From Escherichia phage HK3, in sequence record PP526765: DNA of 64,000 nt; one strand, given 5' to 3'. How positions within the stretch are numbered: position 1 is the stretch's first letter; each line of letters starts with the position of its first letter. The translations under genes were made by a program, and so were the position numbers. The notes under the pieces are model-generated. The model had not been told where the DNA came from. It did no database searches and saw nothing but the letters and a program-made list of their open reading frames with translations. Below are positions 4,209 to 37,652 of this stretch, piece by piece.

Positions 4209-4840
4209 TATTCCTCCCCTGCTGGGTTAACTGTAACTGTTGCTGCATTAGATGTCACAGAGCCACCTGCACCAGTAACTACACAGGTGTAGCTTCCTGC
4301 ATCAGCAGCAGTTGCACCTTCTTTGGTATAAGTTGCAGCAGTTGCTTCTGGGATAACTTCCTCACCCTTCTTCCACTGATAGCCTGTTGCATCAGTAGCA
4401 ACAACACTTAGTGTCAAGGTGTCACCTTCAGTGATTTCTTGATTGGTTGGCTGCTGAGTGATTGATGGTGGTTTGACAGCACCTTTCAACTTAGCATTCA
4501 GCATTGAGAATGGTTTAACTCTTGCCAGCCATTCACAGTAAATTGTGTCAACATCTTTACCATTGATGATTGCATATTGTAAGTCCATGAAGAAGTCAGA
4601 AGTTCTCATTTGAGCACCGATGCTGTAAAGCAACTCATCACTAAATGGGACTTTATAGGCTGGTTTGTAGTCAAACTTCTTAACTTCTGCAATATCAGCT
4701 TCAGGCCAATACGAACTATATGTAAGCGGTAAAATAGCCTCTTGATATGTTCTAAAATCATATCTCTTACCAGCCTTTACATTTGCAACGAAGCCCTTCA
4801 CAAACTCTTTGAAGTCTGGGTAAGTCTTTGCTTTAATCAT
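4208..4840 (-). CDS. hypothetical protein with C-terminal Ig-like domain; paralog of adjacent gene
   Basis: N-terminal 125 aa alignable to 4837..5208 product (shared FMDLQY motif); C-terminal about 80 aa resembles bacterial Ig-like domain (TLTLSVVATDATGYQWKKGEE...GSYTCVVTGAGGSVTSNAATVTV). Confidence 0.5.
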   Translation of the reverse strand: MIKAKTYPDFKEFVKGFVANVKAGKRYDFRTYQEAILPLTYSSYWPEADIAEVKKFDYKPAYKVPFSDELLYSIGAQMRTSDFFMDLQYAIINGKDVDTIYCEWLARVKPFSMLNAKLKGAVKPPSITQQPTNQEITEGDTLTLSVVATDATGYQWKKGEEVIPEATAATYTKEGATAADAGSYTCVVTGAGGSVTSNAATVTVNPAGEE

Positions 4841-5208
4841 TTCTTTTTAGCCTCTAAATGTGCGTTTAGTCTAAAATAACCTTTGTGATGCGGAGATACA
4901 TCACCAACAACAATACCCTTAACCTTATAACCTTTACCAATTACATACTGGATATCCATAAGGAATCTTCCAAGTCCAACAATATGGAACATTGGATATA
5001 ACAGTTTCTCAGAATCTGGAATATTGATTTCAGGTTTGTAGGTGCGTTGTTCGCTTGTTGGTGTAATATCTTCTTCAGGCCATTTACTGAGTCTCCATGT
5101 CAAAGGTGTTGGGATAACATCATTAAGGTTGTACCTTTCACCATTTTGCACGGAATTGATATAGGATTGTAGGAAGCAATAAAAGTCTTTTGCACTCTTA
5201 GCTTTCAT
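4837..5208 (-). CDS. hypothetical protein, paralog of 4208..4840 N-domain
   Basis: 123 aa; shares KAK..DF, FMDLQY, NAxL motifs with neighbour. Confidence 0.5.
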   Translation of the reverse strand: MKAKSAKDFYCFLQSYINSVQNGERYNLNDVIPTPLTWRLSKWPEEDITPTSEQRTYKPEINIPDSEKLLYPMFHIVGLGRFLMDIQYVIGKGYKVKGIVVGDVSPHHKGYFRLNAHLEAKKK

Positions 5209-6916: not shown

Positions 6917-8332
6917 ATGAGCAAGTTATTTAAACATGCGCACCTTCATGCAGGTCGAACTGAAAATGGTGCTGTAAACCATACTTCATCAATGTCTGCT
7001 CTGGTAGACTTCTACAAAGCCGCTGGTTCAAGCCGTAGCAATGTAGAAATCTTACCAGACCTGTTCTACAAAGCTTTGCGTGAGGATGTTGATGTTGCAG
7101 TTCGTATTTTACTGCATATGCGAGATGTACGAGAAGGTATGGGCGAGCGTAAAGCTTTCCGAACTGTTTTGCTTCAAGCGATTGAAGATAAGGTTTTAGA
7201 ACCTACACAGGTTCTTCGCATTATGGATAAGATTGCAGAACTTGGTCGTTTTGATGACTTCAAAATCTTTGTAGGTACTCGTTTTGAGACAGACGCCTTC
7301 AAACATTTAGAAGCAGCATTACTAGACCCTGCAACAGCAGGTTTAGCAGCTAAGTGGTTGCCACGAGTAAAACCACGCCACAAACAGTTTGTAAAACGTT
7401 TCTGCAAGTTTGCAAACTTAAGTGAGAAGGAGTATCGCACACTGTTGTCTGCACTATCTGATACGGTTGAGCAAAAAATCTCTGCTAATGAGTTTGGTAA
7501 GATTGACTACAGCAAGATTCCTTCACTAGCTGCTGCACGTTACCAAAAACTCTTTAACCGTAAAGATGGTGAACGTTACAAAGCTTACATCGAGTCGCTC
7601 TCAAAGGGTGAGGCTAAGATTAATGCTGGTGCTGTTTACCCATACGATGTGATTAAATCTATTAAGTATGGTAATGCAGATGTTGCTAATGAGCAGTGGA
7701 AAGCACTTCCAAACTGGATGGCAGAAGGTGAAAACATCTTGTGTATGACTGATGTTTCAAGCTCAATGTCTTGGGTGAATCTTGGTTCAATCACTGCCCT
7801 TGATATTGGTGTATCACTTGCTTTGTATGTAGCAGAACGCAATACTGGTTGCTTTAAAGATGAGTTAATGGTTTACTCAACAAACCCTCACTTCATTGAA
7901 CTGAGTGGTGATTTACGAAACCGTCATCGTCAGGTGATGCGTCACGTTGAATATGGCTCAACTAACTTACAAGCAGCTTTTGACCGTATTCTTGAAATAG
8001 GTAAGAGAAACAACTTGACTCAGAAAGATATGCCAAGTAAGCTTATTATCTTCTCTGATATGGAGTTTAATCAGGTTGATGGTGCAAATGGTCATACAAA
8101 CTTTGAAGCAATTCAGAGTAAGTACAAAAAAGCCGGATACGAAATGCCACAACTAGTATTCTGGTACTTAGCAAACCGTAATGGTACTTGCGAAGTATCT
8201 GTTAAGGATAATGGTGTAGCAATGGTATCAGGGTTCTCTCCAGCCACTTTAAAAGCTCTACTTGGTGGTGAGAAGTTTGACCCAATCAGCGTAATGCTCA
8301 AAGCAGTAATGATTGACCGTTATATCTGGTAA
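6917..8332 (+). CDS. vWA-domain protein with Ro60-like architecture (alpha-helical N-domain + C-terminal vWA)
   Basis: 471 aa; MIDAS-like DVSSSMS ... GSTN ... IIFSDME in C-terminal half; helical N-terminal about 270 aa; lies immediately upstream of tRNA array. Confidence 0.6.
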   Translation: MSKLFKHAHLHAGRTENGAVNHTSSMSALVDFYKAAGSSRSNVEILPDLFYKALREDVDVAVRILLHMRDVREGMGERKAFRTVLLQAIEDKVLEPTQVLRIMDKIAELGRFDDFKIFVGTRFETDAFKHLEAALLDPATAGLAAKWLPRVKPRHKQFVKRFCKFANLSEKEYRTLLSALSDTVEQKISANEFGKIDYSKIPSLAAARYQKLFNRKDGERYKAYIESLSKGEAKINAGAVYPYDVIKSIKYGNADVANEQWKALPNWMAEGENILCMTDVSSSMSWVNLGSITALDIGVSLALYVAERNTGCFKDELMVYSTNPHFIELSGDLRNRHRQVMRHVEYGSTNLQAAFDRILEIGKRNNLTQKDMPSKLIIFSDMEFNQVDGANGHTNFEAIQSKYKKAGYEMPQLVFWYLANRNGTCEVSVKDNGVAMVSGFSPATLKALLGGEKFDPISVMLKAVMIDRYIW

Positions 8333-25201: not shown

Positions 25202-33232
<8,031 letters not shown>

Positions 33233-33234
33233 TA

Positions 33235-34404
33235 ATGGCAGTAGGTGAAATTCAAATTAGTGCCTTGCCTCAAGCAGCCTTACCGATTGACCTTAGTGAT
33301 ATCTTCCATCTTAAGCAGGGTATTGAGGATAAGAGATGTACTCTTGAGCAACTACTTGCTCCACACTCAAGCTTAAGAAATAACCCTCATGGTGTTACTA
33401 AAACACAAATTGGTTTAGATAATGTTATTAATGCTCTTCAGTTAGTTGCTGCAAATAACTTATCAGATATTGTTAATGTAGCTGAGGCAAGAAAAAATCT
33501 ACAGATTATGTCTTCAGAAGAGGTTAATAGTCTTATTCAACAGCATATTAATGACAAGAGCAACCCACACAATACAACTAAGGCACAGGTTGGTTTAAGT
33601 AATGTCCAGAACTGGACAACATCTAACCTTTATAATGAAGATGCAGATAAGTATGCTACAGCAAGAGCAGTAAATAACTTGTACAAGGCTGTTCAGGCTT
33701 CTTATCCAGTAGGTACTATCCATCTCTCTATGAATCCTGCAAACCCTTCTACATATTTAATTTGTGGAGGTACTTGGGAGTTAGTCTCAAAAGGGAGAGC
33801 ACTTGTAGGTTATGATAGTGATTCTAGGCCAGTTGGTAGTAACTTTGGCTCTAGCAGTGTTAGTTTGTCTAGCAACAATTTACCATCACACAGCCATTCT
33901 ATCTACCTAACAGGTGGGAATCATAGTCATGGTGCAAATGTCTCAGTTAGTGCGTTTGATTATGGTACTAAATCAACCTCATCATTTGATTACGGTACTA
34001 AGACTACAAACACTACGGGTGCTCATACACACTCTGTGAGTGGTTCAACAAATACAACAGGTGCTCACACGCATGGATATGTCACTGGTTACCAAGATAC
34101 TGGTGCATCAGGTGATTGGGATAGGGATGGACACAGGAATACTGTTCAGACCGATAGTGCTGGTAACCACTCTCACTCCATCAGTGGTACTGCTGCATCC
34201 AATGGTAATCATAATCACACGGTGGCTATTGGTTCGCACTCACACACTGTTGCTATCGGAGCGCATTCACACAATGTAACAGCTAGTGTTACTGGAGCCG
34301 GAGAACACACCCATTCAGGTACTACCGGTGCTACTGGTGCTGGTCAAGCATTTAGTGTTGAGCAACCATCTTTTGTAGTTTATGTATGGCAAAGAACAGC
34401 TTAA
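33235..34404 (+). CDS. tail fiber protein with His-x-His repeat tip
   Basis: 389 aa; N-terminal repeats [15 protein letters not shown] / [15 protein letters not shown] (phage fiber repeat); C-terminal SHSHS, GNHSHG, GAHTHS, GSHSHT repeats. Confidence 0.7.
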
Positions 34405-34451
34405 AATTCTTTACAGGGGGCTGTATAGCCCTCTTTCTAGAGGACAAAATA

Positions 34452-36974
34452 ATGGCAGATTACAAATTGAGTCAATTGAACTCAATCGACACAATCCGTT
34501 CAGATGACCTTCTTCATGTCAGAGTTAAAAAGAGACCTGAAATGCTGGGTGATGAAGACCGTCGAATGACCTATCAAGACTTCTTAGCGTCTTTTAAACT
34601 AGAAAGGTTTGTTCAGATTGCTGGTAGCACTATGACGGGTGACTTAGGAATTGTTAAGTTACTTTATGGTGGCAAGGTAGTCTTTGACCCTACAGGCTCT
34701 TCTGAGATTACTATGGGGGATGTTTTAAAGACTTTTAAAATTAATGCAAATGGTCTTAAACTAACTATTGCAGATGCTTCAAGGTCTGCAACCGTTTATC
34801 ATACTCTGAATAAGCCAAGCCCTAATGAACTTGGGATGAGAACTAATGAAGAGAATGATGAAAGATATGCAAGACTTGCTGTTACAAACTCATTCCAAGC
34901 TAAACAGAGTGTCGTAGCAAATGGTGAGCAGTTGACACTGAAGACCCCTGCGGGTGCAAGTGAGGCATACTCCGCTATTGTAGGTCGAAATGCCAATAAT
35001 GATAAAACTTGGGCTGTTGGGAATCTAACTCAAGGAAGTCTTGATGTCCATCTCGAAAACAGCAGAGGTTCAAGAATCACTCTAGGTGCAATTGTGTCTG
35101 TTAATAAGGCTCTCGCTATTACTGGACAGGTTCAACCTTCTGACTTCTCTAACTTAGATGCTAGATACTTTACTCAGACAGTGGCTAATCAGAGATTTGC
35201 GCAGTTAGCTGCGAATAACACTTTTAGTGGTTTAAACACCTTCAGCAATTATGTTAGTGTTAGCTCTAATGCTGCCGCTATCATGCTAAAAAATAAAGCT
35301 GTTAATGAATCTTTGTTCATCCTAGCAAAAGATGTTGAAAACAATAACCTGTGGTATATTGGTAAAGGTGGTGCAAATGATAATATCACATTTTATGATT
35401 ACAAGGGTAACACCTCTCTTGTCTTCAACTCATCTGGTGCTGCATTTAACAAACCTGTAAAAATCACTGGTCAAGTTCAACCCTCTGATTGGTCTAACAT
35501 TGACGCTAGATACATCCCAGCAGGAACATTAAGTACAATTGCCAGAACTAATGCAAGTAACACGTTCACTGCAAAGCAGGTTATTAACACTAATGGTGAA
35601 GCCCTTACGTTACAAGGAAAGACAACCGCAGCACTTTACATTAGAGGTAAGGATTATGATGGAACGAATAGGTGGTATGTTGGTAATGACAGTGAGAGTG
35701 ACACTCTTAGTGTATATAACTATAAAACTGGTAAAAGCCTAAGCATTGGTTCCGAAGTAGCAATTAATGCAACATTAGTAATTGATGGTCAAGTACAACC
35801 TAGCAACTGGTCTAACTTAGATGCTAGATACTTCACTCAAAGTTCTAGCGACGGCAGATACCTGATAATTAGAAGCGCAGGCTTTAATTTAGGAGACGGT
35901 GAAAAGTGGGCTAAAATTGCTACTGTTGTGATGCCGCAATCAGCATCAACGGCAGTTATTGAGGTTTTTGGTGGCGCAGGGTTTACTATCAATAAACCAA
36001 ATCAAGCAGGGAAGTGTGAGATTGTTTTACGAACATCAAATAACAACCCAAAAGGTTTGAATGCTGTAGCTTGGAAAACCGCTGAGAATAACATCATCAC
36101 TGATATCGGTCATGTGAATACGTCTGGTGACACTTATGATATTTACTGTCGAGTTGGTCCGTACCAAAATGGTACAACAGCAAGAGTTCAATCTTCTAGT
36201 AATGCAAGTGTACAGTTGTTTGAAGTCCCACAGACATTTAATGATGCACCACAAGGTATTGTGAAGGGTACAGTTGCAAAATACTACACTAGTTTGCAAA
36301 AACCAACCCCTTCAGAGATTGGTGCATACACTAAAACTGAAACTGACCAGAAGATTGCACAGGCAGTAAGTGATTCTACAGACCTTAATAAAATCTATCC
36401 AGTGGGTATTGTGACATGGTTTAACAGTAATGTTGACCCTAATACAGCACTGCCTGGTCTAACTTGGACGTACCTCAACAATGGCGTTGGTAGAACTATC
36501 AGAATTGCAGCGGCAAACGGTTCAGATGTTGCTACAACTGGTGGTTCAGACTCTGTGACGTTAGCTGTTGGGAACCTGCCTTCACACACTCACAGTTTTT
36601 CTGCTACCACTTCATCTTTTGACTACGGAACAAAAAACACTAACACGACTGGTGCTCACACTCACTCTGTGAGTGGTTCAACGAATACAACAGGTGCTCA
36701 CACACATGGTTATACTACTGGTGCGCAACCAAGTGGTACAAGGGGTGATTGGGATTCTGACGGTAACAGGAATACCGTACAAACGGGTAGTGCTGGGAAT
36801 CACTCACACACTGTATCTGGTACTGCTGCATCAAATGGTAACCATGCTCACAGTGTTGGTATTGGTGCTCACAACCACACAGTTAGTGGTAACACTGGTG
36901 GTACAGGTTCTGGTTCAGCATTTAGTGTTACTAACCAGTTCTATAAGTTAATGGCTTGGGTGAGAACTGCTTAA
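34452..36974 (+). CDS. long tail fiber protein
   Basis: about 840 aa from ATG 34452 (track ORF from 34386); three internal about 100-aa repeats ([54 protein letters not shown]); C-terminal HxH module near-identical to 33235..34404 tip. Confidence 0.7.
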
Positions 36975-37053: not shown

Positions 37054-37251
37054 ATGCCTACAATCCTAGCAATTATTCTAAAAAATCTAGGTAGCTTCTT
37101 CTGGAAACTCATTTTATCCCTTCTAAGTGAATACATGATTGAGAAAGTGTTCTTTAGGCTTGCAAGATACCTTGCTAGTAAAACAGACACACCTATTGAT
37201 GATGAGTTCGTAGATAACTTAGAAAAAGCTTTTAAGGGGGAGAATAAATGA
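37054..37251 (+). CDS. small membrane protein (holin-like candidate)
   Basis: 65 aa, single hydrophobic helix ILAIILKNLGSFFWKLILSLL. Confidence 0.4.
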   Translation: MPTILAIILKNLGSFFWKLILSLLSEYMIEKVFFRLARYLASKTDTPIDDEFVDNLEKAFKGENK

Positions 37252-37619
37252 AGTGGCTAGAGGAAGCTTTTAAAAATAATATTGGTGCAATTGTAGTAGG
37301 TATTTTTAGTGTTATTGGGATGTATACCACAATGCAGGTTGCAAGTGGTAAACAAGAAGTGTCTATCACAACAAAGTTACAGCAGCTAGATAATTATTCC
37401 AAAAGTAACTATTCAGCTATTCGTGATTTACAGTCTGACATGAGATTGCTTCAGCTAGGGATGGAGAACCAGAAAGTTCAGTTAGAGAATGTTAAGGGTG
37501 AGAACGCAAAACTTACTAAGACTCTTGATAAGTTCTCTGACAGTGTGAACAATCTGGCTCAATCAGTATCAGCCCTCCAAGCTATTACTGAAAAGAACAC
37601 AAAGAGTACTGAAAAGTAA
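37248..37619 (+). CDS. membrane-anchored coiled-coil protein (spanin-like candidate)
   Basis: 123 aa; N-terminal TM IGAIVVGIFSVIGMYTTM then heptad-rich region. Confidence 0.4.
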   Translation: MKWLEEAFKNNIGAIVVGIFSVIGMYTTMQVASGKQEVSITTKLQQLDNYSKSNYSAIRDLQSDMRLLQLGMENQKVQLENVKGENAKLTKTLDKFSDSVNNLAQSVSALQAITEKNTKSTEK

Positions 37620-37624
37620 AGTTT

Positions 37625-37652
37625 AAGGCTCCTTTTTACGGGAGCCTTTTTT
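37625..37652. terminator. bidirectional terminator between convergent modules
   Basis: AAGGCTCC-TTTTTACG-GGAGCCTT with T runs on both sides; lies between + strand gene end 37619 and - strand gene end 37656. Confidence 0.7.

Follow-up and report, generated by a model that had tools for sequence, protein, structure and literature searches.

The 64,000-nt stretch of the genome of Escherichia phage HK3 analysed here (PP526765; hereafter the window) carries two consecutive tail fibre genes whose products end in a similar module crowded with His-x-His (HxH) motifs, and the locus raises the questions of what kind of tip such modules form, why two genes of one genome share them, and whether the shared part acts as a recombination cassette. 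The first gene encodes a short tail fibre (STF) of 389 amino acid residues (aa; 33235-34404) and the second a long tail fibre (LTF) of 840 aa (34452-36974); these genes, the parts of them given below and the hairpin between them lie on the + strand. Comparison with related phages and with T4 makes it highly probable that both are baseplate fibres of a Felixounavirus, one short and one long, bearing tips of the T4 gp37 type.

The window belongs to the genus Felixounavirus (Felix O1-like myophages), has a GC content of about 39%, and its structural module (8000-30000) shares 96-97% nucleotide identity with many members of the genus. The fibre region matched 234 phage records in megablast, and nearly every one is a Felix O1-like phage with E. 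coli or Salmonella as its host. The STF open reading frame (ORF) matches PHROG 2097, 'tail fiber protein' (E 7e-144), occupies the syntenic position of a tail fibre in the relatives and is the orthologue of Bas63 gp26 and Felix O1 gp76, while the LTF ORF matches PHROG 4277 over its full length (E 0) and is the orthologue of Bas63 gp27 and Felix O1 gp77. The order of genes in the window, namely a Baseplate_J protein of 489 aa, two baseplate ORFs of 285 and 100 aa, STF, LTF and two small membrane-protein ORFs, agrees up to the LTF, lengths of the three baseplate ORFs included, with that of Bas63 gp23-gp27, where the wedge proteins are followed by gp25 (the LTF platform), gp26 (STF) and gp27 (LTF) (PMC12609058). 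Both genes thus follow the baseplate wedge and the 100-aa platform gene, begin with the conserved N-termini MAVGEIQ… and MADYKLS…, respectively, and lie in a backbone of genus-level nucleotide identity.

The assignment of the tips is supported by direct homology to T4 gp37. In phmmer searches of the PDB, STF residues 146-359 matched residues 18-229 of the gp37 tip chain (2XGF) with an E value of 1.7e-27, and the LTF matched the same structure with an E value of 3.8e-18; in the HMMER alignments, each of the seven T4 HxH motifs has an HxH partner in the STF, and the first six also have one in the LTF. The Phage_fiber family (PF03335) scored 21.8 and 23.7 bits for STF and LTF, respectively, above the curated cut-off of 20. 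The STF collar matched Pfam Gp10_C (E 3.6e-19) and the gp10 chains in the PDB (E 5e-8). A MAFFT alignment with T4 gp37 gives an overview of the whole needle and C-terminus, and at its C-terminus each fibre has a strand (…AFSV…W.RTA) that aligns with the last residues of gp37 (…NIAFNYIVRLA). Sequence homology to the receptor-binding domain of T4 gp12 (1OCY) was not detected for either fibre. In Bas63, the tips of both STF and LTF consist of collar, HxH needle and head as in T4 gp37, whose di-His motifs coordinate iron (PMC12609058), and the C-termini of Felix O1 gp76 and gp77 were noted to resemble T4 gp37 in the genome paper of 2010 (PMC3185647).

The alignments allowed both tips to be divided into the same parts. 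The STF begins with a collar of the gp10/gp11/gp12/gp37 type (aa 157-218; 33703-33888), followed by an ascending needle arm aligned to 2XGF (33889-34074), which bears four HxH motifs, a duplicated FDYGTK and an insertion of 21 aa relative to the LTF. The presumed receptor-contacting head (aa 281-311; 34075-34167), which lies after the last HxH of the ascending arm and before the first of the descending arm, aligns with the T4 gp37 head, belongs to a type designated B and is the most variable part of the STF among relatives. The descending arm (34168-34320) carries five HxH motifs and likewise 21 extra residues, and the C-terminal strand with the stop codon (34321-34404) aligns with the T4 gp37 C-terminus. 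The LTF comprises a collar (aa 649-711; 36396-36584) that aligns with the STF collar and scores 21.1 bits for Gp10_C, below the cut-off of 27, an ascending arm with three HxH motifs (36585-36707), a head also of type B (aa 753-783; 36708-36800), which is 71% identical to the STF head in amino acids and 70% in nucleotides, and a descending arm with three HxH motifs, the C-terminal strand and the stop codon (36801-36974).

How alike the two modules are could be measured at several levels. BLASTP aligned them with 54% identity over 185 aa (E 6e-52) and 24 gap positions, 21 of which form a single gap representing the extra STF residues on the outward arm; the 21 added residues of the returning arm lie past the end of this alignment. 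A gapless core of 92 aa (STF aa 248-339) contains 75 identical residues (82%). At the nucleotide level, the shared tract of the STF (33976-34251) is 77% identical to that of the LTF (36609-36884), with a 60-nt core (34020-34079) at 92%, and perfect matches between the two genes of the window reach at most 20 nt. The preliminary description of the locus, made from the sequence alone, had called the C-terminal modules near-identical: they are indeed homologous, but the wording is too strong, because the DNA repeat is only 77% identical and exact matches do not exceed 20 nt. Its segments, 33871-34404 and 36571-36974, were correctly bounded, both starting at the first HxH (NLPSHSHS and NLPSHTHS, respectively) and running to the stop codons; their unequal length reflects the 21 residues by which each needle arm of the STF is extended. 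The pairwise nucleotide alignment that it had proposed recovered a true homologous repeat and not a mere likeness of composition.

The packing of both modules with His-x-His repeats was likewise borne out. Nine motifs occur in the STF, at aa 219, 230, 264 and 278 on the outward arm and at aa 312, 326, 335, 344 and 358 on the returning arm, and six in the LTF, at aa 712, 736 and 750 and at aa 784, 798 and 807, respectively, compared with means of 1.9 (STF) and 1.0 (LTF) and maxima of 8 and 6 in 20,000 shuffled segments. Histidine is nearly confined to these motifs (18 of 19 residues in the STF module, 12 of 12 in that of the LTF), which almost always take the form GxHxH. The difference between the arms, 4 + 5 motifs in the STF and 3 + 3 in the LTF, was traced to the additions of 21 residues on each arm. 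The outward addition holds the second FDYGTK; the returning one holds a 27-nt tandem duplication (34216-34273; 2.1 copies, 80% matches) encoding HTVAIG(S/A)HS, i.e. a duplicated His box. Matching additions on both arms are what the lengthening of a hairpin-like needle requires, and across 42 loci with an intact fibre pair the numbers of HxH motifs on the two arms co-vary (4/5, 3/3, 2/2). The parsing of heads is unsuited to the 382-aa 'finno-type' STFs (type G, counted as 6/1), for which the arm counts are unreliable.

By analogy with T4 and Bas63, each fibre would be a homotrimer with a receptor-binding tip of the gp37 type at its end. The chain would pass from the collar along the outward needle arm to a distal head of about 31 residues and back along the returning arm, and its C-terminus would therefore lie beside the collar. 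With 21 residues added to each arm, the STF would have the longer needle. Loops of the head would contact the receptor, which for the genus is reported to be lipopolysaccharide (LPS) (PMC8594841); trimer formation, receptor contact by the head and any effect on host range are inferred.

The role of the modules in recombination was assessed in 14 GenBank and 29 IMG/VR loci; the 42 intact fibre pairs mentioned above come from this set and include the window. Identity to the window, calculated in 30-aa bins, revealed conserved N-termini, collars, connectors and His boxes and very variable shaft-domain cores and heads. The LTF gene of the window is a mosaic at the nucleotide level: 34885-35185 is closest to AYO145A (97-99%), 35185-35485 to NJ12, BPS17W1 and BPS17L1 (91-92%), 35470-35800 to allfine and LNA6 (95.5%), 35785-36385 to finno (84-97%) and 36385-36974 to JH2 and mio (93-95%). 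This combination of cassettes was not found together in any record searched; for the fibre region as a whole, the best coverage was 88%, and the entire region was never matched above 93%. The comparison of tips across relatives, which the preliminary description had also suggested, sorted the 31-aa heads between the His boxes into about 17 types in the 42 loci. By the available host labels, heads of type A come from Salmonella phages and those of type B, the type of the window, from E. coli phages. Types A and B were found in both genes, and in 9 of the 42 loci STF and LTF carry the same type. In JLBYU28 the STF tip is that of the window (96.6% amino acid identity) and the LTF head is different.

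Two relatives bear tracts suggestive of exchange between STF and LTF within a genome. In the Salmonella phage BPS17L1, a tract of 189 nt is 100% identical between STF and LTF (2257-2445 and 4891-5079 of its locus), extending from FDYGTK to just past the first returning His box, and in another locus of the set, L035, a tract of 113 nt is 100% identical (4835-4947 and 7294-7406); in both, the flanks are divergent and the tracts are bounded by FDYGTK or by a His box. Both tracts have the appearance of a recent gene conversion by which the head cassette was copied within the genome. In agreement with such exchange, the within-genome identity of STF and LTF heads in six type A phages is 0.894, compared with 0.849 in random pairings, 16 of 720 of which reach 0.894, and the STF head of mio resembles LTF heads (0.85-0.86) more than it does other STF heads (0.79-0.81). 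Homology, motif arrangement, mosaicism and the identical tracts in relatives are direct observations. The conserved coding stretches, namely those of FDYGTK, of the His boxes and of the connectors in the shaft, seem to serve as homology arms; heads and shaft domains are swapped as cassettes from phage to phage and, in some relatives, between STF and LTF of the same genome. It is conceivable, although we regard it as a tentative proposal, that the STF and LTF genes of Felixounavirus exchange head cassettes by intragenomic gene conversion, with the FDYGTK and His-box stretches as the homology arms. Descriptions of STF-LTF conversion within a genome were not found in the literature searched, nor did the search find any paper using the term 'His box'.

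Several points weigh against this picture of metal-bearing gp37-type tips exchanged as cassettes. The AlphaFold2 model of the monomer is of moderate quality only (predicted local distance difference test, pLDDT, 71.5; predicted template modelling score, pTM, 0.37), and a Foldseek search gave no significant match. Binding of metal, probably iron, by the HxH motifs of both tips is deduced from sequence homology. The link between head type and host depends on a handful of host labels. Identical tracts could in principle arise from assembly collapse, although they occur in two genomes with different sequences. The heads of the window are only 70% identical to each other in nucleotides, against 95-99% for either head and the orthologous one of JH2 or mio; with cassettes 70-77% identical mutually as against 95-99% to orthologues, no recent STF-LTF exchange has occurred in this genome. 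Of the 74 identical residues in the window's cassettes, 46 are encoded by the same codon, where about 33 would be expected from codon usage, an agreement only moderately above expectation that points to shared ancestry not yet saturated, with no recent conversion. The suggestion that the shared module is a recombination cassette for host-range switching is supported at the level of the genus, given the 17 or so head types, the LTF mosaic and the 189- and 113-nt tracts, but not as a recent event in HK3.

These data also bear on the strongest competing explanation, according to which the module is an old duplicated scaffold kept alike by purifying selection on a metal-binding needle, diversity arises solely by exchange of whole tips between phages, and the similarity of STF and LTF plays no part in recombination. 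Such a history would account for heads that in the window, JH2 and mio are 95-99% identical to their orthologues and 67-71% to the paralogue of their own genome, as well as for the 20-nt limit on exact matches in the window. It fits poorly with the identical tracts set between divergent flanks in BPS17L1 and L035, with the affinity of the mio STF head for LTF heads, with the presence of head types A and B in both genes and with the excess of same-codon use in the window's cassettes. We consider it rather unlikely.

A second alternative concerns the motifs themselves. If the tips are built as in T4, the six histidines contributed by three chains at each GxHxH would hold one metal ion on the needle axis, which is iron in T4, so that the STF needle could contain up to nine ions and that of the LTF six; the 2XGF homology, the HxH register and the published description of Bas63 all favour the metal-coordinating, T4-like receptor-binding tip suggested earlier. 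The motifs could instead have another role, as a catalytic metal site or in binding zinc or nickel for enzymatic degradation of LPS. In favour of such a role, T4 gp12 binds zinc through an HxH motif; the fibres nevertheless match no enzyme family in Pfam or PHROGs, their motifs line up in register with those that form the structural sites in T4 gp37, and the numbers on the two arms are matched throughout the genus, which leaves this option very improbable next to axial structural ions. Finally, a merely compositional likeness of His/Gly/Ser/Thr-rich, low-complexity segments, with no specific fold or common origin, can practically be dismissed: G, S, T and H do abound in the region, and short repeats occur there, but the alignments refute such a reading, given the BLASTP E value obtained despite compositional adjustment, the 2XGF match with all HxH in register, shuffles that reach at most 8 motifs against 9 observed in the STF and 6 against 6 in the LTF, and 1272 homologues carrying Collar and Phage_fiber domains.

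The tips of the window can be placed among several known systems. The fibres of Bas63 (gp26/gp27) and Felix O1 (gp76/gp77) resemble them in backbone (genus-level identity of 96-97%), gene order, sizes, the collar-needle-head organization of both fibres and the repeated LTF shaft domains, Bas63 having been compared through its published description. They differ in detail: seven HxH motifs are reported for the Bas63 STF (PMC12609058), compared with nine in the window (four ascending, five descending), and head sequences vary from phage to phage among Felixounavirus relatives. The T4 gp37 tip shares with the window the collar, the six-stranded needle with outward and returning arms, the GxHxH register, a small head and the C-terminal strand. 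It has, however, seven HxH motifs and a head of 37 aa that binds OmpC or LPS, in contrast to the 31-aa, sequence-unrelated heads of the window; it is carried on a fibre of four proteins instead of one, and T4 employs the chaperones gp38 and gp57A, whereas no chaperone gene adjoins the window's fibres and the two downstream ORFs encode small membrane proteins. The T4 gp10/gp11/gp12 collar family (PF21939, PF07484), unlike the window's fibres, lacks a long HxH needle, and gp12 binds zinc through His at one site only. Side tail fibres of lambdoid and P2-like prophages (Collar plus PF03335) contain a FDYGTK-HxH-head-HxH segment 43-63% identical to that of the window, but, as with T-even fibres, only about half of the module is held in common, and the N-terminal parts and chaperone needs of the prophage fibres differ. 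The module is widespread, with the 1272 homologues (E ≤ 1e-5) including E. coli prophage fibres of this domain composition. In addition, the head of the AYO145A LTF (aa 697-730) is almost the same as that of T4 gp37, which implies that a cassette passed between the fibres of Felixounavirus and those of T-even phages.

In T-even phages, Tétart et al. reportedly described, in 1996 and 1998, the exchange and duplication of adhesin segments at conserved His-box motifs. The window resembles that case in that conserved stretches flanking a variable receptor-binding segment are the points of recombination, and its STF contains the small tandem His-box duplication at 34216-34273; unlike the T-even case, exchange in relatives apparently also takes place between different fibre genes within a genome. 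That both fibres of Felixounavirus end in a gp37-like HxH tip has already been published (Bas63 cryo-EM, 2025, PMC12609058; Felix O1 genome, 2010, PMC3185647), and so has the marked variability that tips and shaft domains show in the genus; the fibres of the window are one more mosaic of known cassettes. With the tip published and the exchange of cassettes at conserved motifs long familiar from phage fibres, little biology is added. The within-genome conversion tracts represent a modest lead which concerns the relatives and is not a property of this window. If exchange between the two genes is real, many phages, this one included, would show one head type at two reach lengths, and a host switch gained by one fibre could then be passed on to its partner. 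Of practical use are the mapped points of exchange, namely FDYGTK, the first His box of the returning arm and the GQVQPS…DARY connectors, which offer natural junctions for host-range engineering of Felix O1-like therapeutic and diagnostic phages.

Upstream of its tip, the LTF contains the three tandem repeats of about 100 aa that the preliminary description had recognized. They are marked by conserved 68-nt cores at 35101, 35446 and 35764 (spacing 345 and 318 nt), comprise aa 140-239, 250-354 and 362-460, are 33-41% identical to each other, and each end with GQVQPS(D/N)(F/W)SN(L/I)DARY. The Pfam family gp37_trimer (PF20744) matches the LTF in three stretches with 168.8 bits (curated cut-off 21.7). 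Nucleotide repeat finding, Pfam and direct alignment thus recovered the repeats, which were not reported by self-BLAST of the LTF. The core of repeat 1 (34869-35168) is 97-99% identical in nucleotides to AYO145A only; repeat 2 (35199-35513) is best matched by NJ12, BPS17W1 and BPS17L1 (91-92%) and also matches the T7 gp17 fibre (4A0T, E 1e-4), and repeat 3 (35535-35831) is best matched by allfine and LNA6 (95.5%). The shaft is a row of such domains of about 100 aa, linked by conserved GQVQPS..SN.DARY connectors. The shaft of the STF contains the motif NPHxxTKxQxGLxNVxN twice, 60 residues apart (33379-33432 and 33559-33612; aa 49-66 and 109-126).

The LTF is taken to extend from 34452 to 36974, because its ATG at 34452 (MADYKLSQL) is preceded 7 nt upstream by GAGGA and the start is shared with all annotated relatives. 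A start at 34386 (ORF 34386-36974) was rejected: it overlaps the end of the STF, has no Shine-Dalgarno (SD) sequence and lies upstream of the ATG at which the relatives begin. The in-frame extension (34386-34451), which begins 66 nt upstream of the LTF start, is probably untranslated and holds a hairpin (34407-34444; RNA folding energy -17 kcal/mol, z -3.1), the outer stem of which pairs with the LTF SD sequence GAGGA (34440-34444). This STF-LTF intergenic hairpin could perhaps set the relative expression of the two fibres. The equivalent site in AYO145A is annotated as a rho-independent terminator.

A few observations concern neighbouring genes and the loci compared. The 100-aa ORF upstream of the STF (32930-33232) matches PHROG 4141 (unknown function), has no Pfam match and occupies the position of Bas63 gp25, the gp9-like LTF platform. 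Among the compared loci, L004 (MG065664.1, 'Campylobacter phage A132', UNVERIFIED and unannotated) is a Felixounavirus with typical STF and LTF, and its host label is doubtful. Shortened LTF frames of 541 and 453 aa were found in the IMG/VR loci L026 and L027, respectively; the LTFs of EC6 and Si3 were flagged as incomplete in the Bas63 paper (PMC12609058). Downstream of the LTF (37054-37619), two small ORFs of 65 and 123 aa have predicted transmembrane N-termini. The longer one is named 'holin' in some relatives, and its only family matches are weak ones to coiled coils. Neither of these two ORFs, the only ones of the genome screened in this respect, matched chaperone families, and no chaperone homologues were reported in a related phage in the Sf14 paper (PMC11821841). 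Past them, genes for thymidylate synthase and dihydrofolate reductase are encoded on the opposite strand, and a terminator-like hairpin (37625-37648) follows the 65- and 123-aa ORFs.

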